Origin: Escherichia phage Utah
Direction: 5' to 3' (one strand)
Length of the DNA: 59,024 bases
Sequence record: KY014601.1
Every line of letters starts with the position of its first letter. The stretch's first letter is position 1. The notes beneath the pieces are model-generated. The model had not been told where the DNA came from and did no database searches. It saw nothing but the letters and a program-made list of their open reading frames with translations. Of the stretch, positions 38,126-59,024 are shown one piece after another. Made by a program: the position numbers and the translations under genes.

Positions 38126-40321
38126 GTGGCGGATGAAGACGTAGGTATCAGCGCGGCCAAACTGGTCGGCGAAGCCTTGCAGTGGAATGGCGCGAAGCCC
38201 AAACTCACATACCTGTCCCGGTGTGTGGGCGAAGCGTTAGCCATTTCCGCATTGAACATCGACGCGGCGAAAAACTTCGGGGAGGTTTTGCAGTGGGACG
38301 GTAAATTGCCGTCCATCTTCCGCGCGGCCGAGTTGGTCGGCGAAGTGCTGGCGATTCAGAAGATGGAGATCCGCGCGTCAACGATGGTCTGTGAAGCACT
38401 GGTCAAAGAGCCGCAATTTATGGCGGCCGAAATGATCTGCGAGGCTATCGGTCAGGCGGCCACGGAACGGCCACCGCTTTACGCAGATGCGGTTTATCAG
38501 TACGTCACGCAGCACGATGTCGTACCGCCGTTGTCGGATGTCATTTCGCCGGAAAGTCTGTACACGTTGTGGAATTACGCCATTGTCCAGCGGCCGATCG
38601 ATGCCCCGATTTCCTACAACATCGTGAAGCAGGCGGTGACGCTGTCCGTTCTGGCGTCGCCTATCGTGACTATTTCGTACGACAAGGTGAAGACCGCGTG
38701 GTCGTATGCCGTGGTGTCCGCGACGCTCGGTGACTTCCCGCTGCCGGATGAAATGTGGTCGAAGATCAGCACGAAACAGGCGTGGAATCTGGTATTGCAG
38801 TCGATCGACATCCCGTACGTCCCGACGTCTGGTGTGTTCGTTCGCCATGAATCGACGCTGGTGGTTCAGGCCCATCCGCTGCCGATGTACACGACGCCTG
38901 CGTCCGTGAAGTCGAACGTGGTTCTGGCCGCGCAGAAGCGCCCGGTTGAACGACTCCCGCGCTCAAGGACTCGCGTGGCGCAGGCATTATCGCAGGCCGT
39001 TACCGCGTTGCCGATCCCGATGCCCCGGTCAAACGTGTTCGCCGCGCAGACGCTGTCACAGGCGGTCATCCCGGCGGACTTCGTTGACCCGACTGTCGGT
39101 GTCGAGCACGCGGCCGCAGTGACGTCGTATGCTGTTTGCGAGTATCAGGTGTCGCTTCCTATCAGTTACACGCGCGCGAAGACCCTGACGCCGCTGGTGC
39201 TGCAATTTAGCGATAACCAACGAACCATCCCGCTGTCCACGATGCGCACCAAACACGTTTCGTCTCAGTTCTTGGTCAAGTCTGACTTGCGCCCGGTGCT
39301 GTCTCGGATGCGCACCAAACACGTTTCGTCTCAGTTCTTGGTCAAGTCTGACTTGCGCCCGGTGCTGTCTCGGACGCGCGTTAAACAGGTACGCGGCTAT
39401 GCGGTGCGGGCGGAAGAGTACACGCCTCCGATTAACCTGCTGGTATGGTCGCGCGCTGACGCTGTTCGCATGTCGGTGGTGCAGCAGGCAACGGACTACC
39501 CTGACCCGGGAATACCTACAACGTCGGCCATCGTTAGTGCGGCCACGGCGTACCACGTCATGAAAGCGCTGGACTACGAAGACCCGAACGATATGTGGGA
39601 GGCGAGCAAGGTTCAGACCGTGCCGCAGTTATTAGAGAAGGTGGTGAAAGCCCAACCGCTCCGGCTCCCGATCTCGTACGCTCCGCTGGCGCAATTTGTT
39701 GAACTGGTGACGCGGTACCAATACATGCCGCCTCCGGGTGAAGTTGCCGAGTCCGGTATCCATGTTCGTCAGGTAATGCAGCCAGTGGCGTTCCGCGCGA
39801 CGTACCCTGACCCGACTGTCCCGGTATCCTACCTGACGGTCAATCAGGTACTGGAGCACATCGCGACCCCGGCCGACTACCCGGACGCCCACCTGCCGAC
39901 GTCGGACGCGATTGTAAATCAGGTATTGGAACACGTTGCGCAGATTGACGATTTCCCTGATCCCGGTACCATGTTCCGGCCGCTTATTGTCAGCCAGATC
40001 ATTCAGCAGGCGGCACAGGATGCGTCTTACCCGGATTGGAGCACACTGCATAAACCGCTTGCGGTTCAGCAGGTAATTCAGCATGTATCAATGACGGCGG
40101 AATACCCTGACAAGGACGTCCCGCAATCATTTGCAAAGGTGTCTCAAGTTTTGCAGCACTATGCCGATAAAGCTAATTACCCAGACAAAGATGCTCCCCA
40201 ATCCACGCTACGAGTCCGTCAGGTACTTGAGCAGGTAATGATGCGCGACAAGTCGATGTACGAAATGCCGCAGCCACCACGGAAACATCGGGTGCAAATC
40301 ACTTGCCGCTTTGTGTACTGA
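38126..40321 (+). CDS. Highly repetitive protein (N-terminal VGEALQW repeats, tandem 22-aa duplication, C-terminal YPD repeats); possible fibre
   Basis: 731 aa; GTG start after AAGGGGG RBS; repeats LVGEALQWNG / FGEVLQWDG / LVGEVLAI; six or more YPDx units with VNQVLEH / VSQVLQH. Confidence 0.5.
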   Translation: MADEDVGISAAKLVGEALQWNGAKPKLTYLSRCVGEALAISALNIDAAKNFGEVLQWDGKLPSIFRAAELVGEVLAIQKMEIRASTMVCEALVKEPQFMAAEMICEAIGQAATERPPLYADAVYQYVTQHDVVPPLSDVISPESLYTLWNYAIVQRPIDAPISYNIVKQAVTLSVLASPIVTISYDKVKTAWSYAVVSATLGDFPLPDEMWSKISTKQAWNLVLQSIDIPYVPTSGVFVRHESTLVVQAHPLPMYTTPASVKSNVVLAAQKRPVERLPRSRTRVAQALSQAVTALPIPMPRSNVFAAQTLSQAVIPADFVDPTVGVEHAAAVTSYAVCEYQVSLPISYTRAKTLTPLVLQFSDNQRTIPLSTMRTKHVSSQFLVKSDLRPVLSRMRTKHVSSQFLVKSDLRPVLSRTRVKQVRGYAVRAEEYTPPINLLVWSRADAVRMSVVQQATDYPDPGIPTTSAIVSAATAYHVMKALDYEDPNDMWEASKVQTVPQLLEKVVKAQPLRLPISYAPLAQFVELVTRYQYMPPPGEVAESGIHVRQVMQPVAFRATYPDPTVPVSYLTVNQVLEHIATPADYPDAHLPTSDAIVNQVLEHVAQIDDFPDPGTMFRPLIVSQIIQQAAQDASYPDWSTLHKPLAVQQVIQHVSMTAEYPDKDVPQSFAKVSQVLQHYADKANYPDKDAPQSTLRVRQVLEQVMMRDKSMYEMPQPPRKHRVQITCRFVY
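39241..39372 (+). repeat. Perfect 66-bp tandem duplication inside the repeat-protein gene
   Basis: 39241-39306 is identical to 39307-39372 (GATGCGCACCAAACACGTTTCG...GTGCTGTCTCG), encoding MRTKHVSSQFLVKSDLRPVLSR twice. Confidence 0.9.
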
Positions 40322-44437: not shown

Positions 44438-44467
44438 AATATAGGTTATACACGCGACGTATGTCAA
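44438..44467 (-). promoter_or_regulatory. Leftward promoter with conserved spacer element (TTGACA-TACGTCGCGTGTATAAC-CTATAT)
   Basis: Minus strand -35 TTGACA (44462-44467); spacer contains ACGTCGCGTGTA core shared with promoters at 46494, 49756, 53083. Confidence 0.6.
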
Positions 44468-49755: not shown

Positions 49756-49784
49756 ATATTAGTCGTACACGCGACGTACGTCAA
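49756..49784 (-). promoter_or_regulatory. Leftward promoter (TTGACG-17-TAATAT) with conserved spacer element
   Basis: -35 TTGACG 49779-49784, spacer TACGTCGCGTGTACGAC, -10 TAATAT 49756-49761. Confidence 0.6.
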
Positions 49785-53082: not shown

Positions 53083-53111
53083 ACAATAGTTCTACACGCG
53101 ACGTATGTCAA
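53083..53111 (-). promoter_or_regulatory. Leftward early promoter (TTGACA-17-TATTGT) with conserved spacer element
   Basis: -35 TTGACA 53106-53111, spacer TACGTCGCGTGTAGAAC, -10 TATTGT 53083-53088. Confidence 0.55.
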
Positions 53112-53164
53112 TTCATTTCATCCAGTAATTATGATGACCGGGTGACGCTCCAGTTTAGTTTCAG

Positions 53165-53409
53165 CCGGATGACGTTTTGAAGTAAGGCGGGTGGCCGGGC
53201 CGCCGGGCTTCAACCGGGTAACTTTTTCAAGTAAGCGCGGAACGTCGCAACGACAACCGGACAGGTTTTTCAAGTAAGCCCGTCGGCCGGGTGAAATTGC
53301 CCCGACGCTGGTGGACAAAACCGTCAGCCGGGTAGGTTTTTGAAGTAAGGACTGGCCGCGTTGTTCAAAATTTTTCAACCGGGTAACTTTTTCAAGTAAG
53401 CCCGTCGGG
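53165..53409. repeat. Five direct iteron-like repeats, consensus CCGG(G/A)NA(A/G)NNTTTT(C/G)AAGTAAG
   Basis: Copies start at 53165, 53214, 53257, 53328, 53379 (spacing 43-71 bp); followed by AT-rich patch and a GC-rich block 53440-53700; no ORF. Confidence 0.6.
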
Positions 53410-53706: not shown

Positions 53707-53753
53707 TTGACGCACGCCGCGTATATCATCTACATTTGAATTCCCTTCGGGGG
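53707..53753 (+). promoter_or_regulatory. Rightward promoter unit with conserved core and 5' UUCG stem-loop
   Basis: TTGACGCACGCCGCGTATATCAT-CTACAT then CCCTTCGGGGG; about 47-nt unit nearly identical to 56484-56530. Confidence 0.55.
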
Positions 53754-53800
53754 ACGGGGCAAAAAGTCCAGGCGATAAACTAACTTTATGAGGTATCACG

Positions 53801-54058
53801 ATGGAAAAGGTATATAACGCGATCAAGGGTCAGACGTTGCAACATTGGTTAACTATTGCCATCAAGCGCGACGAAAACGGAGACGCGACGGTCGAACTAC
53901 GCAGCACGATCCACGTTAACCGGGTGAGCACGCTTTCTTTTTCATGGGGGAAGGAATTCACCGACGCCGATATTTTGAATGACGCCGATTTATTACGCGT
54001 CATTTATCAGAAGTATGGGCGCGAAATTTTCACCGCTGATTTTACACGTAACATCTAA
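53801..54058 (+). CDS. Hypothetical protein (AT-richer right-arm operon)
   Basis: 85 aa; RBS GAGGT; A/T-rich codon third positions by eye. Confidence 0.5.
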   Translation: MEKVYNAIKGQTLQHWLTIAIKRDENGDATVELRSTIHVNRVSTLSFSWGKEFTDADILNDADLLRVIYQKYGREIFTADFTRNI

Positions 54059-54076
54059 TTTAATAAGGGGATCACT

Positions 54077-54616
54077 ATGCAAACCATTAACACCAAATAC
54101 CATAACGGGAAAATCGTTGCGACGTCGTGGAATGGCTGGACGCGTTCAGAATATGACGCGGCGTTATCCAGTGAGCAAAATCACCGCGCCGCCGCTGAAA
54201 AGCTAATCATTAAACTGAATAAAGGCCGCTCGATGGAATGGGGGATCGTGAATAGTGCGCCATCCGTGCCGGGCGTGCGTGGTAAAGATAACGGCTGGAC
54301 GTTTATTATTGGTTATGTGCCGGAGGTTGCGCCGCTGGATATGTCAATCACTGTTAAATTCTGCCCGGCAACAAATAAAGGCCCGGCGTTTATGCGCGCT
54401 TATTCGTGGTTAGTGCCGCGCGGGATCAAGGTTAACTATTCGCCACGCGTCGCCGACGGGTCAGATATTCAGGCAAACGCACGTTATGCGGCGGGAATCA
54501 TGTTAGACCGCATTAATGAAATATGCCGCGAGGGGGGCGATCTCTTAGGCTGGAAAATCGCGGACTATGTGCAACTTTACGACGGCGATCGCCTGTTCAC
54601 ACTGAAATCTAATTAA
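54077..54616 (+). CDS. Hypothetical protein
   Basis: 179 aa. Confidence 0.5.
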   Translation: MQTINTKYHNGKIVATSWNGWTRSEYDAALSSEQNHRAAAEKLIIKLNKGRSMEWGIVNSAPSVPGVRGKDNGWTFIIGYVPEVAPLDMSITVKFCPATNKGPAFMRAYSWLVPRGIKVNYSPRVADGSDIQANARYAAGIMLDRINEICREGGDLLGWKIADYVQLYDGDRLFTLKSN

Positions 54617-54630
54617 TCCGGGGGCGCGTC

Positions 54631-54831
54631 ATGTTAATGGCTATTATCTTGATCGGTTATTCAATAATTGCGGCTGTTATATATCACGACGCGCGGGCGG
54701 TGTGGCGTCGCTGTAAGGTTGAGCGCCGTTATTCTTTCGGGCGCAAAACGTTTTATTTACGCGAGCGTAAAACGGGCCGTTTGATCGGCTGTTCAAATAA
54801 TTTTTTCACTCTTCTGTTACAAGGGGCGTAA
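54631..54831 (+). CDS. Small hypothetical membrane protein
   Basis: 66 aa; N-terminal hydrophobic MLMAIILIGYSIIAAVIY. Confidence 0.4.
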   Translation: MLMAIILIGYSIIAAVIYHDARAVWRRCKVERRYSFGRKTFYLRERKTGRLIGCSNNFFTLLLQGA

Positions 54832-54833
54832 CC

Positions 54834-55457
54834 ATGCGTACTATTTCACTTTATACTTTTAATGAACTGTCAGACGTCGCGAAAGCAAAAGCGATCGAAA
54901 ATTACCGCGAATATAAGAGCGGCGATCAATTCGACTTTTCAGAATACAAAGAAAGCCTACGTGAATTTTGTGATGATCTATGCGTCGAGGTGCGCGACTG
55001 GTCATACGGTCTGGGCGGTTGCGATGTTCGCTACGAAATTAATCATAGTTCAGATGTGGAAGATTTATCCGGCGTACGTGCGTACAAATGGATCATTAAT
55101 AATGTTAATGCGTTTAATATGCGTCGCCGCGTTTATCGTGAATACCGTGAAGTCAATAACCACGGTTTTAAACAAAAGGCGTCTTTCGTTAAATGGGTTA
55201 GCGGGGTGTTCAACGCGTCCGACGATTGCCCATATACAGGCGTATGCTATGACGAATCATTATTGAAGCCTTTTCGTGACTTCCTGAAAAAGCCGGATAA
55301 CCGCACGATCGCGGAACTGATACGCGAATCTATAGACGGGTATTGTTCGGATATGCTCGACGAACTGGAAGGCCGCGAAAGTGACGAATATTTACGGGAT
55401 GAACTGGAAAACGGCGACACGCCTGAATTTTTTGAAAACGGCGCTATTTATAACTAA
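54834..55457 (+). CDS. Hypothetical acidic protein
   Basis: 207 aa; D/E-rich throughout (e.g. DELEGRESDEYLRDELENGDTPEFFENG). Confidence 0.5.
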   Translation: MRTISLYTFNELSDVAKAKAIENYREYKSGDQFDFSEYKESLREFCDDLCVEVRDWSYGLGGCDVRYEINHSSDVEDLSGVRAYKWIINNVNAFNMRRRVYREYREVNNHGFKQKASFVKWVSGVFNASDDCPYTGVCYDESLLKPFRDFLKKPDNRTIAELIRESIDGYCSDMLDELEGRESDEYLRDELENGDTPEFFENGAIYN

Positions 55458-55468
55458 TCGGGGGATCT

Positions 55469-55672
55469 ATGGGTCATATGTATGGCGTTATCTTGTCAAA
55501 TGGTACGCATTGCGACACGTCAACCACGGAAAAGGGCGCGAAAAATTACGCCACGCGCCACGGGTACAAGGAAGTAAGCCGCCGCCTGAATTGCGGCTAT
55601 AGCGTCGAAATCGTAGCACATCGCGCCGGGTCGAAATGGATCGCCGGGCCTGCTGACCACTCAACCAAATAA
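55469..55672 (+). CDS. Hypothetical protein
   Basis: 67 aa. Confidence 0.4.
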   Translation: MGHMYGVILSNGTHCDTSTTEKGAKNYATRHGYKEVSRRLNCGYSVEIVAHRAGSKWIAGPADHSTK

Positions 55673-55682
55673 GGGGATCACC

Positions 55683-56231
55683 ATGAAACTGAATATTACC
55701 GCGCCGGGCCTTTTCTTTAATCGTAGCGGCGACCGCGTCACCGTGGATCAAATCGTTTTAGAGAATAGCGCCGGGGCCGTCGTGTCATTCCCGGTTAAGG
55801 GGCGGATCTGGAAAATGTACCGGGGCGCATATCGTCCGCGTGAGTTTAAGATCTGGACGGCGTCGGGCAAGTTTTACGCGGGCGAACAATCCCGATCACC
55901 GTGGGATATTGTCGGCGAGGTTGTCGCGGACGATGTGCGCCCGGTCTACTGGCAAGATCTGACCGATGACCAGAAAGCGCAAGCCGCCGCCAAATATCAC
56001 AACGGTGAAGGCACGCCGGGCGATTATTTCACCTATACGCCGGATCAATTCATTGTAATTAATGGTGACGTGTACGATCTGGACGCCGACGCGTCAGTCT
56101 ATGAGGTCGAAGGGTTAAAAGGTCATGTGCGCATACTGGAAAGCTCAAAGGCGGACGGGGCCGCGCTGGCGGTGCAATGTGTGGACGGCTGGCGGGTAAT
56201 AAGCGTTTACCGCGTACAGGTGACATCATGA
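55683..56231 (+). CDS. Hypothetical protein
   Basis: 182 aa. Confidence 0.5.
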   Translation: MKLNITAPGLFFNRSGDRVTVDQIVLENSAGAVVSFPVKGRIWKMYRGAYRPREFKIWTASGKFYAGEQSRSPWDIVGEVVADDVRPVYWQDLTDDQKAQAAAKYHNGEGTPGDYFTYTPDQFIVINGDVYDLDADASVYEVEGLKGHVRILESSKADGAALAVQCVDGWRVISVYRVQVTS

Positions 56232-56449
56232 ATAAAACCGGATTTTCGGGGAACGCCGCTAGGGCCGCGATCAAGTTTACCGCGTGCGGCGCGATCGTGG
56301 TGTTTATCGGGGCGGCGGTTATTTTCGGCGACAACGTCGGGCCGTATAAAGTGTTTTTGTATACCGTCGCCGGGGGCGTATGTGTGCGCCTGATTTGGCC
56401 TACACAAGACGAAGGCGACGCACTTATAAAACGGGATGACGGGCCGTAA
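56228..56449 (+). CDS. Small hypothetical membrane protein
   Basis: ATG 56228 overlapping previous stop (ATGA); hydrophobic AAIKFTACGAIVVFIGAAVIF; 5' end contains 27-bp repeat also found at 58480. Confidence 0.4.
   Translation: MNKTGFSGNAARAAIKFTACGAIVVFIGAAVIFGDNVGPYKVFLYTVAGGVCVRLIWPTQDEGDALIKRDDGP
56233..56259 (+). repeat. 27-bp perfect direct repeat, copy 1 (TAAAACCGGATTTTCGGGGAACGCCGC)
   Basis: Identical to 58480-58506; together they flank a ~2.2 kb block containing a promoter copy and four genes. Confidence 0.85.
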
Positions 56450-56483
56450 AGGTGACGCGGCCGACGATTAAAGAGAAAAGTTA

Positions 56484-56530
56484 TTGACGCACGCCGCGTA
56501 TATCATTTATATTTAAATTCCCTTCGGGGG
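56484..56530 (+). promoter_or_regulatory. Second rightward promoter unit (TTGACG-17-TTATAT) with conserved core and UUCG stem-loop
   Basis: TTGACGCACGCCGCGTATATCAT-TTATAT then CCCTTCGGGGG; gene ATG 56575. Confidence 0.6.
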
Positions 56531-56574
56531 CCGGGGGCAATGGGGCCGACGGTTAGCAAAACAGGTGCTACAAA

Positions 56575-57735
56575 ATGACACATGATCAAATCGTTGCAAT
56601 GGTTGGAAAATATAACATCAAGGCCGATCGCGCCGTGTCTTACAACTTTGATAAATACGGTTCAACGCAAGTCGAGATCCGCGAGGTGGACGGCGGATCA
56701 TTAATCTGGCGTGCGTGGTCTTATGAAAGCAATTTCGAAAACGTGTTAGAAAGCGCGCTTGATCATTCCGGTGTGCTGAAAACCGCCGACGAAATCGCCG
56801 AACAGGAAGCCGCCGCACGCGCTCAACGCTTGCGCACTGACGCAATTTTCTTCGATGTTCACGGGTTCGAAGATGATTTCATCCTCAACCTTTCCGACTT
56901 TACCCGCGCTGAAATCGAAGCGGAGATCATCGCGATGAATGCAGAATTAAACGCGGCAAGCGCCAACGCCGACGCCGACGCGGTTGATCACGTTTTACGC
57001 TCAACAAATCCGGCGGGGGAATACGTTTATTTAAAGCGCGGTTACTGGATGTTAGATCTTGATGACGCGGAGATCCTCAACGCCCGCCCGGATATTCACT
57101 GGACAAGCCTTTACGACACGCCGATCGAATATGTGACCGTTGAGCAGGCCCGCAAGGATGACCCGGAAAGCGATTTCATCAAACAACTTAAAGCGGGCTA
57201 CGTGACCGCCCCGACCGACTACGTCGATCGCGCGTGCGCCGCCGTTGAGCGGGGAAACGTTAACGCATCGGGGATCGTGCTGCATACCTTGCGCGACAAA
57301 ATCGACGGCGAATTTTACGAAATCGCGACACGTATTAGCCCGGCGGAATATCAGCTTTATCGTGTGCGCGTTGTCGTGTCCTGCTGCATTGATGGCGCAT
57401 TTCATAATGTCATTGAACTGGATCGCGATGTGAACACGGTTGAGCACGTCCGCGACGTGGTGCGCGTCGGCTGCATGAAACAATATATCAAGCAAGCCCG
57501 CGCGACGTATACCGCGACCGGGGCCGCCACGCTCAACAATGACAAGACGGCGACCCGCATCAAGATTAAAACCGTTGCGGGAATGACGTTGATCGCTAAA
57601 ACCGAAGACGTGATTTTTTCAGATAGCGGCCTGTTTTGCTCCGCGTGGTTGATGCGTCTTGATTTGCTGGAAAACAAGACTTACGCGCAAGCCGTCACGA
57701 CGTCGCAGATCAAAACCATCGAATTCATCAAATAA
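56575..57735 (+). CDS. Hypothetical protein
   Basis: 386 aa; no motif recognised. Confidence 0.5.
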   Translation: MTHDQIVAMVGKYNIKADRAVSYNFDKYGSTQVEIREVDGGSLIWRAWSYESNFENVLESALDHSGVLKTADEIAEQEAAARAQRLRTDAIFFDVHGFEDDFILNLSDFTRAEIEAEIIAMNAELNAASANADADAVDHVLRSTNPAGEYVYLKRGYWMLDLDDAEILNARPDIHWTSLYDTPIEYVTVEQARKDDPESDFIKQLKAGYVTAPTDYVDRACAAVERGNVNASGIVLHTLRDKIDGEFYEIATRISPAEYQLYRVRVVVSCCIDGAFHNVIELDRDVNTVEHVRDVVRVGCMKQYIKQARATYTATGAATLNNDKTATRIKIKTVAGMTLIAKTEDVIFSDSGLFCSAWLMRLDLLENKTYAQAVTTSQIKTIEFIK

Positions 57736-57778
57736 GGATCATCACAATGGGTATTAACATCATTAAACTGGATCGAGG

Positions 57779-57994
57779 TTGGTAATTATGGCGGGATTAT
57801 GGTTTTTCGTTGTGACGATGTGCGGCGCGGTTGGTGCTGATAATAAGGCGGCGGATTGTCATGATTATGTGATTGACGCGGGGATCTCGTTTGACGATTG
57901 CCGCGCGTCCGTGGCGGCTTATCCGGGCCGCATTGGCTTATATTCCGCACGTTGTGACCGGGGCGAGGCGGTAGAAGGGGGCAACGATGAATAA
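57779..57994 (+). CDS. Small hypothetical Cys-containing protein
   Basis: 71 aa; hydrophobic N-terminus, four Cys. Confidence 0.4.
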   Translation: MVIMAGLWFFVVTMCGAVGADNKAADCHDYVIDAGISFDDCRASVAAYPGRIGLYSARCDRGEAVEGGNDE

Positions 57995-58238
57995 AGGCCA
58001 ATACCGCGCCGCGCGTCGCCTGATACGTGATAACGGGATCTATGCGTTGCGATGGCTGGACGATGACACCGCGCCGATCATGGACGTGTTAGCAAGCCAG
58101 CATGATGACCAGTTAAAGACAAGGGCGGCGATCGTGGCGTACAGCGCCCGCGCCGGGCTTCCCTGTAATGTGCGTAAAACGGCGTCACTTGATCTTTTAG
58201 CGCGGTACAATGACCGCAAGGCGGCCCACAATGGATAA
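57987..58238 (+). CDS. Hypothetical protein
   Basis: 83 aa. Confidence 0.45.
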   Translation: MNKGQYRAARRLIRDNGIYALRWLDDDTAPIMDVLASQHDDQLKTRAAIVAYSARAGLPCNVRKTASLDLLARYNDRKAAHNG

Positions 58239-58482
58239 GGCGCAACGCTTAACGGCTGCACGTATGGCGGCGGATCGGTATGCCGGGATCGCACGGGCAA
58301 AAGGTTTTAAGCGTCATATTGATGGCGTGACGTTTACCCGGGCTGATGCGGATCTAACGTGGGATGACCGGGCGCGCGCTTTCCGTGTGACGCTGTACAA
58401 AATGGACGGGGCCGCACGTCTTTCCGTTGCCACTGTACGCGCGAATGCGATGCTTAACGTGCTGTTAAAAGCGTTTATCTAA
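58231..58482 (+). CDS. Hypothetical protein
   Basis: Start placed at ATG 58231 (overlap with previous stop) instead of 58210. Confidence 0.4.
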   Translation: MDKAQRLTAARMAADRYAGIARAKGFKRHIDGVTFTRADADLTWDDRARAFRVTLYKMDGAARLSVATVRANAMLNVLLKAFI

Positions 58483-58506
58483 AACCGGATTTTCGGGGAA
58501 CGCCGC
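58480..58506 (+). repeat. 27-bp perfect direct repeat, copy 2
   Basis: TAAAACCGGATTTTCGGGGAACGCCGC immediately after the stop of the last right-arm gene. Confidence 0.85.
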
Positions 58507-58551
58507 ACGATCCCTTTTAACCTGTTTTGACATATTCCCCATGTATCAAAG

Positions 58552-58575
58552 GCCGCCTATCCGGGCGGCTTTTTT
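58552..58575 (+). terminator. Rho-independent terminator ending the right-arm operon
   Basis: GCCGCC-TATCCG-GGCGGC followed by TTTTTT (58570-58575). Confidence 0.7.
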
Positions 58576-58585
58576 ATTGCCTTTC

Positions 58586-58783
58586 TGATATACGCGGCGT
58601 GCGTTGCGGTGCCGTGTAGCGGGCCTATGGTGTGCCGTGTGCGATGATATACGCGGCGTGCGCATGGCGGCCCGTCCTGATTTCTTCCTTCCTGATATAC
58701 ACGACGTGCATCAAAGCGGCCTTATGTGCGCGCTATGCCGTATGGCGGCCCGCTATGGTGCTGCATGATATACGCGGCGTGCG
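58586..58783. repeat. Four direct repeats of TGATATACGCGGCGTGCG (reverse complement of the rightward promoter core), lacking a good -35
   Basis: Copies at 58586, 58645, 58693 (variant TGATATACACGACGTGCA), 58766; spacing 48-73 bp; copy 4 reverse complement matches 53710-53729 over 20 nt. Confidence 0.75.
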
Positions 58784-59024
58784 TTGGCGTTATGCGGCTG
58801 CATATGGCTATCTATTCCCCTTTCTATGGTATCCCCTGCTATATGGTGTGACGGGGCGTTATTGTATGCCCTTATTTCGACCGCTACGGGGGGTAGACGG
58901 GGCGATCGTGGTGTAAGGTATGACTACCTATTACGATCTATCTTGCGTGGCGTGGCGGGCGGCTGAGGAAGAATTACGGTCATGCTTTCAAAAAGGTACT
59001 TACCCGGCGATCGGTCGGCCCGGG

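Follow-up and report, generated by a model that had tools for sequence, protein, structure and literature searches.

In T4-type phages, PeSL have been described as mobile regulatory cassettes that undergo shuffling and form mini-circles (Arbiol et al. 2010, PMC2839356), and in spirit this is the closest described system to the locus examined here. The locus is the right arm of the sequence deposited as Escherichia phage Utah (KY014601.1), a single stretch of 59,024 nucleotides (nt) referred to below as the window, in which a perfect direct repeat of 27 base pairs (bp), TAAAACCGGATTTTCGGGGAACGCCGC, brackets a block of about 2.2 kb. As with PeSL, short repeats lie in an early-expressed, accessory and compositionally distinct region and flank small genes to which no function has been assigned, the region is remodelled by recombination between short repeats, and the two 53-nt units that we term P1 and P2 (each a promoter plus a stem-loop) are similar in make-up. 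However, the 27-mer itself holds no promoter hexamers, terminator or stable hairpin, is present in two copies only (PeSL are many), and coincides with no gain, loss or replacement of sequence between relatives. The hairpin of P1 and P2 is furthermore a leader following the promoter, and not a terminator preceding it, and no mini-circles are known for this arm. The P1/P2 units, together with the ribosome-binding-site (RBS) linkers between genes, are better analogues of PeSL than the 27-mer.

A first-pass annotation of the window had taken the repeat as the signature of a module inserted or exchanged by recombination. We find that the repeat does not delimit a cassette that is mobile or exchangeable, and consider it reasonably probable that one old ectopic duplication, in the ancestor of the genus Chivirus, left it behind as a decaying, presumably functionless vestige; its duplication origin, its neutrality and a role for gene conversion are what we infer from the comparisons below. 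The window opens with GGTGCGCAGAGC, a 12-nt cohesive end identical to the one that Hendrix et al. (PMC4342425) determined for phage Chi, and its genome of about 59 kb is collinear with that of Chi. Its 5.6-kb right end matches approximately 120 phage records, nearly all of them Salmonella Chi-like phages, with iEPS5 and TS13 being 98% identical across the full length of this end and Chi 91-92% identical for the arm. Given that the window begins with the published Chi cohesive end and that its right end matches Chi-like phages, it is a complete Chi-like Salmonella phage genome, genus Chivirus (Casjensviridae), running from cohesive end site (cos) to cos. Gene numbers used throughout are equivalents of Chi genes 64-75, assigned by gene order in the Chi annotation.

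The two copies of the repeat and their distribution

The 27-mer is present at exactly two sites, both on the + strand (Table 1). No third site was found in the genome even at 3 mismatches, and none of 100 shuffled sequences gave any match. The perfect repeat described at first pass is therefore confirmed, with no expectation that it arose by chance; it is the third longest exact repeat of the 59-kb genome, and the similarity ends sharply at both edges. Its placement at the start of a small membrane-protein gene and just after the last gene was also correct, in that copy 1 starts 5 nt into gene 70 (ATG at 56228) and copy 2 overlaps a TAA stop, and so was the statement that the bracketed block carries its own copy of the promoter unit, P1 and P2 being 92% identical over their 53 nt. 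In most relatives copy 1 reads TGAAT-AAAA-CCGG…GCCGCA and copy 2 reads TGAAT-C-CCGG…GCCGCA, both beginning at the TGA of the preceding gene.

The two copies differ in coding status. Hafnia phage Enc34 (54% identity) and Klebsiella phage SAKp11 (53%) each have a gene 70 homologue at this site, immediately before P2, with the alignment beginning at residue 6, and on this basis copy 1 is most probably native coding sequence. Copy 2, on the other hand, has no conserved translation, as lineages carrying TAAAA and those carrying TGAATC place it in different frames relative to gene 75, and no start codon precedes it. The same difference in frame led us to reject an extension of gene 75 into copy 2 by readthrough or frameshifting, and a decayed gene 70 paralogue 3' of copy 2 was rejected because the similarity ends after about 12 residues.

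We read 28 Chivirus right arms that reach both positions, drawn from phages in GenBank, assemblies of Salmonella and Logan contigs, and each had both copies; of 107 phage records with a match, about 94 aligned to the two flanks as separate hits. The search for the 27-mer in relatives, which had been proposed as a check at first pass, thus shows the pair in every Chivirus arm read over both positions, with a length of identity that varies by lineage from 16 to 28 nt. This length is 28 nt in BP12C; 27 nt in the window and its closest relatives (TAAAA plus the core); 24 nt in STP-3, SP-030 and PST-D32; and 23 nt in Chi, YSD1 and most others (TGAATC, the core and A). Three genomes keep 16 nt only, TAAAACCGGATTTTCG, and then pass into a different allele. 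A putative 32-nt ancestor composed of TGAATAAAA, the core and A could give rise to either form, TAAAA or TGAATC, through one small deletion sparing the gene 75 stop.

The repeat is specific to Chivirus. No repeat was found at the two equivalent positions in Enc34, SAKp11 or a Yonseivirus-like metagenome contig (L151); each of these has two promoter units, and Enc34 and SAKp11 additionally have upstream iterons and an operator cluster at the right end. A look-alike in SAKp11, AAAATCCGGTTTTACCGG, at the end of its gene 75 homologue, is coding and aligns 20 nt upstream of the copy 2 position, and was set aside as coincidental. Across 100,044 bacterial species genomes the 22-mer core was found solely in one phage-contaminant contig and in one chance match inside a Desulfovibrio gene, and an origin of the repeat in a bacterial host was rejected for this reason. 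An exact 22-mer scan of IMG/VR returned Chi, BP12C and phage 35 only, and a scan of metagenomes with the degenerate pattern CCGGNTTTNCNGGGAACGCC, which was too loose, returned 120 loci that are almost all due to chance, the only Chi-like one (L028) ending before copy 2. As a separate observation, a 580-bp contig in the assembly of Anaerosalibacter sp. ND1 (CCEZ01000055.1, our L147) is 97% identical to positions 58104-58679 of the window, and is Chi-like phage contamination of a bacterial assembly.

The bracketed block and gene turnover in the arm

Direct repeats that bracket a promoter-bearing block could mark an active recombination boundary, at which crossing-over deletes, duplicates or circularises the 2.2-kb P2 operon as an exchangeable cassette, and PeSL provide a documented precedent in T4-type phages (PMC2839356). 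Such events would leave predictable joints, namely …ATGAATAAAACCGGATTTTCGGGGAACGCCGC running into ACGATCCC… upon deletion and …TTTATCTAAAACCGG…GCCGC running into TAGGGCCGCG… upon circularisation or duplication. A synthetic deletion-junction query found no single-piece match in approximately 107 Chi-like phage records, and the fusion open reading frame (ORF) of 37 amino acids (aa) predicted from the deletion is not on record. The reciprocal-junction query gave one match, at the very end of ST-118 (KX765863.1), which runs from copy 2 into the sequence following copy 1; the record carries adapter sequence at its start and is missing its right end and cos, and we regard the junction as an assembler artefact. 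The record of PK5 (PV567558.1) is also anomalous beside the repeat, leaping from 17 nt past copy 1 to left-end position 9, so that 2.7 kb (window 56277-59024) and the first 8 nt of cos are missing. Since a genome without its cos bases could not be packaged, it was treated as an incomplete assembly. The 56260-58480 block, the variable presence of which had been put forward as a check, was accordingly never genuinely lost or duplicated in these records.

Alignments lead to the same view of the block. Among 15 aligned relatives, no insertion or deletion (indel) of at least 8 bp has a boundary at either copy of the repeat. Moreover, because the order gene 66, gene 70, P2, gene 71 and genes 73-75 is shared by Enc34 and SAKp11, two phages of other genera without the repeat, the P2 operon is ancestral to the family and predates the repeat. 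The first-pass reading of the block as an inserted or exchangeable module does not survive these comparisons. An active boundary is very unlikely, even though much shorter repeats have mediated deletions in the arm and an exchange of sequence between the copies is suggested in one clade, as discussed below.

Exact, sharp-edged direct repeats around a discrete block also bring to mind attL and attR, and the copies could in principle be core sites left by site-specific integration of a small element carrying P2 and genes 71-75. This explanation is effectively refuted. No integrase or recombinase was identified in or beside the block, nor any recombinase among all right-arm proteins, by Pfam or PHROG; no empty site is present among relatives; and the same gene order, with an ancestral block, is seen in genera without the repeat. 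Gene 71 was considered as a candidate recombinase and rejected, in that its structure model is confident solely in residues 1-125 (mean predicted local distance difference test score of 49.8), where it forms a small N-terminal beta-barrel domain common to SAKp11, and Foldseek returned no informative or recombinase-like match.

In tailed phages such as the lambdoid phages and mycobacteriophages, modular theory places mosaic joints at gene boundaries. The arm conforms to this in having gene-sized presence/absence joints at stop-RBS-start linkers (gene 68, and extra genes at 53774 and 57744), and it is at these linkers, not at the 27-mer, that the joints lie; on one side the 27-mer sits within a coding sequence. 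Of the 15 aligned relatives, 7 lack gene 68 (55469-55672), their joints lying exactly in the flanking GGGGATC ribosome-binding-site linkers (55451-55685), and relatives without it read TAATCGGGGGATC followed by ACCATG, GGGGATC being joined directly to ACCATG. A longer form of the linker, TAAGGGGATCACYATG, has two exact copies, at 54064 and 55670. A deletion of 234 bp between two ATTAAC hexamers, in frame and shared by SPN19 and ECO111, has removed gene 72 in the window; in relatives the gene has a Phage_Mu_gp6 Pfam match, and its product is given in one record as a 7-kDa RNA polymerase subunit-like protein. The remaining indels of the arm are deletions inside genes 69 and 71 and alternative alleles of genes 64/65, 67 and 74. 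Recombination between short boundary sequences, as invoked at first pass, does therefore act in the arm, at genes 68 and 72, but not at the 27-mer. Given that repeats of 6-7 bp have produced deletions here, the 27-bp repeat would be expected to be deletion-prone, and the absence of the product from over 100 genomes points to some importance of genes 70-75 for the phage.

These observations have practical consequences. Turnover at tiny RBS linkers and hexamer repeats helps to predict or engineer deletions, and the 27-bp repeat is a potential deletion hotspot during propagation or engineering that, to judge from at least one GenBank record, can mislead assemblers.

A probable duplication, possible gene conversion and the case for a cis-element

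Under the duplication that we favour, about 32 nt comprising the gene 69 TGA stop, AT and some 10 codons from the start of gene 70 would have been duplicated and set immediately after the final sense codon of gene 75, either by an unequal crossover that duplicated the gene 70-gene 75 block and was followed by loss of the second copy, or by insertion of a short patch. Copy 1 would since have been maintained by selection on the gene 70 protein, and the non-coding copy 2 would drift lineage by lineage, with an occasional re-matching to copy 1 by gene conversion being possible. The long repeat in the lineage of the window may have been kept by low divergence, and perhaps by occasional conversion. 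The pattern resembles that of a vestigial duplication under concerted evolution, in which the 5' fragment of a gene is copied to an ectopic non-coding site and decays in a lineage-specific manner, with one clade in which the copies match. It differs in that 22-32 nt is near the lower limit for homologous exchange, and in that the evidence for conversion comes from a single clade.

That clade is formed by STP-3, SP-030 and PST-D32, in which both copies carry G11>C together with T at position -1; other genomes have A at this position in copy 1 and C in copy 2. As two linked derived states are common to both copies, a single gene-conversion tract is the simplest account, which these matched changes suggest rather than show. 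The copies are not matched everywhere. L148 and L149 have the STP-3-type variant in copy 1 alone, and the two copies vary independently in phage 35, Siskin, BPS4, ECO111, L157 and L159.

The matched changes have also to be weighed as the mark of function. The 22-27-mer might be a cis-element recognized by one factor (an RNA, or a protein of phage or host), with one site where translation of gene 70 initiates and the other in the 3' untranslated end of the P2 operon; copy 2 could then be a decoy or mimic titrating a gene 70 regulator, or both copies could be polar sites at operon ends. Several observations favour this, and count to varying degrees against a functionless vestige. The concerted T(-1) and G11>C of the STP-3 clade would equally fit co-selection of two binding sites for one factor, and the variant produces a perfect CCGGA-TTT-TCCGG palindrome. 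In Siskin, BPS4 and PK5, copy 1 has undergone a paired A>T and T>A change, from CCGGA…TCGGG to CCGGT…ACGGG, by which the dyad is kept; such dyad-preserving changes are a weak hint of structural constraint that could not be substantiated. Copy 2 is kept in every Chivirus arm read, and the non-coding stretch in which it sits shows good conservation genus-wide, which leaves room for purifying selection on it, and all other long repeats of the genome are regulatory (iterons, promoters, operators). The absence of deletants, for its part, shows only that the block is needed, and not that the repeat is inert, and the scenario of origin cannot be reconstructed from existing genomes.

Nonetheless, we consider a cis-element unlikely. 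The core of copy 2 is conserved no better than the rest of its non-coding region and has been cut to 16 nt in three genomes; in L148, L149, L159, Siskin and phage 35 the allele found at copy 1 is independent of that at copy 2; and other genera are without the element despite a conserved gene 70. Neither does RNA structure offer support: there is no conserved hairpin (fold z-scores of -1.8 and +1.1, copy 1 folding worse than its shuffles), the hairpin predicted for copy 2 is broken in STP-3 and SP-030 and altered between the TAAAA and TGAATC forms, and the best Rfam scores of 17-25 bits compare with thresholds of 50-100, so that there is no match. An antisense or small-RNA role was rejected on finding no leftward promoter to the right of copy 2 and no complementary partner of at least 13 nt in the genome. 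The more specific proposal that copy 2 is a deliberate mimic of the gene 70 start, which titrates or shares a gene 70 factor from the 3' end of the P2-operon transcript or as DNA, we hold to be very doubtful indeed. Were it true, the two sites would co-evolve, which would explain both the matched STP-3 changes and the double change of the Siskin type, and the phage would encode a target-mimic arrangement between two early operons. A decaying vestige of duplication accounts for the assembled evidence better, and in any case the repeat is unlikely to alter the understanding of phage genome evolution.

Composition and anatomy of the right arm

Chi-like flagellotropic phages are candidates for Salmonella biocontrol, and their right arm, with about 11 genes of unknown function, is understudied. 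Its anatomy can now be laid out as two standard promoters with an operator-like spacer and a leader hairpin, one terminator, and an operator-only cluster by cos (Table 1).

Table 1. Positions in the window of the repeat copies, genes and predicted regulatory features of the right arm
Feature	Positions	Strand	Basis	Remarks
P1 promoter unit (predicted)	53707-53759	+	repeat and sigma-70 scan	TTGACG, 18-nt spacer with CGCACGCCGCGTATATCA motif, TACATT, then CCCTTCGGGGG hairpin
First right-arm operon, equivalents of Chi genes 64-69	53801-56231	+	ORFs, PHROG families, Chi gene order	
Genes 64-69 equivalents	53801-54058, 54077-54616, 54631-54831, 54834-55457, 55469-55672, 55683-56231	+	ORFs	
Stop-RBS-start linker TAAGGGGATCACTATG	54064-54079	+		exact second copy at 55670-55685
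Linker second copy TAAGGGGATCACCATG	55670-55685	+		right joint of gene 68 presence/absence
Gene 70 equivalent	56228-56449	+	ORF; phrog_8635	73-aa small membrane protein
Repeat copy 1, coding	56233-56259	+		gene 70 codons 2-11 (N K T G F S G N A A)
P2 promoter unit (predicted)	56484-56536	+	repeat and scan	TTGACG, 18 nt, TATATT, then same CCCTTCGGGGG leader hairpin as P1
Gene 71 equivalent	56575-57735	+	ORF	386 aa, function unknown
Gene 72 remnant	57747-57785	+	alignment with Chi, BP12C, YSD1, STP-3	12-codon ORF
Genes 73, 74, 75 equivalents	57788-57994, 57987-58238, 58231-58482	+	ORFs	
Repeat copy 2, non-coding	58480-58506	+		begins at gene 75 TAA stop, overlapping the stop of the gene ending at 58482
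Intrinsic terminator (predicted)	58548-58578	+	fold; nearly invariant in 27 relatives	GCCGCC / GGCGGC stem, then TTTTTTATT
Four inverted copies of promoter-spacer motif (TGATATACGCGGCGTGCG)	58586-58786	-		without usable promoter hexamers; next to right cos end

The arm had been described by eye as richer in A and T than the rest of the genome, and computation bears this out: GC is 0.517 for 53801-58482 against 0.571 for 1001-53000, and gene-wise GC at third codon positions is 0.58 for 11 arm genes against 0.71 for 40 genes elsewhere (Mann-Whitney p = 1e-5). The accompanying claim of A/T-ending codons holds relative to the rest of the genome, but not in absolute terms, as more than half of the third positions are still G or C. 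The first operon is the most AT-rich (GC 0.50) and the second is intermediate (0.54-0.55). A deficit of roughly 5 points is also found in the arms of Chi, SAKp11 and the metagenome relative L151, so the lower GC is an old property of the right arm and not the result of recent import, which argues against the separate ancestry suggested at first pass, at least as a recent event. Overall, the arm is made up of accessory genes in an ancient region richer in AT, which would be transcribed rightward from P1 and P2 and is closed by one strong terminator.

P1 lies upstream of seven close-packed genes, the last of which is gene 70, and P2 lies upstream of gene 71, the gene 72 remnant and genes 73-75. 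The gene 70 ATG overlaps the gene 69 stop (ATGA). All right-arm proteins are of unknown function by Pfam and PHROG scans; the products of the first operon fall in PHROG families of unknown function, and that of 53801-54058 is a DUF7300 protein. The 34 nt that separate gene 70 from P2 show, on inspection of the sequence, no hairpin with a T run of the kind expected of a terminator, and as such, read-through from P1 into the P2 operon is likely.

Both promoter units appear to be strong host-type promoters of the sigma-70 kind, with hexamers spaced within the expected 16-18 nt. They score 9/12 (P1) and 10/12 (P2) against the sigma-70 consensus and are the sole two good + strand sites predicted in the arm. 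Each is followed by the hairpin AATTCCCTTCGGGGG (53739-53753 and 56516-56530), a CCC-UUCG-GGG tetraloop that would sit at the 5' end of the transcript and may be an mRNA-stabilising element. The family motif TTGACRYACGYSGCGTRTA has 11 sites in the genome against 0.4 expected, and P2 is therefore one of about 11 copies of the standard promoter of the phage, not a private feature of a cassette. Three exact matches are on the - strand, at 44467, 49784 and 53111 (44449-44467, 49766-49784 and 53093-53111), the site at 53111 scoring as a leftward promoter in the consensus scan. The TTGACRYACGYSGCGTRTA spacer contains a near-palindrome, ACGCSGCGT, and Enc34 has the same core in the opposite orientation. 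The four inverted copies beside the right cos end are probably binding sites for the same regulator, and may be operator-only. The terminator is absent from the list of the simple consensus scan; both minimum-free-energy and centroid folds show a long hairpin followed by UUUUUUAUU.

Further repeats were observed outside the two operons. Between the leftward promoter at 53111 and P1, positions 53160-53404 hold five direct repeats of about 31 nt (core TTTTTCAAGTAAG, spacing 43-71 nt), which look like the iterons of an origin, or a regulator array; equivalent arrays have 5 copies in Enc34 and 4 in SAKp11. Just inside the left cos end, seven of the nine genome copies of the heptamer GTTACAA/TTGTAAC cluster at 226-482, upstream of an AT-rich helix-turn-helix gene (614-901, GC 0.455), and may be binding sites for terminase or a regulator. 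The longest exact repeat of the genome is a 66-bp tandem duplication (2.1 copies, 98% identical) at 39241-39379, within the ORF at 38126-40321.

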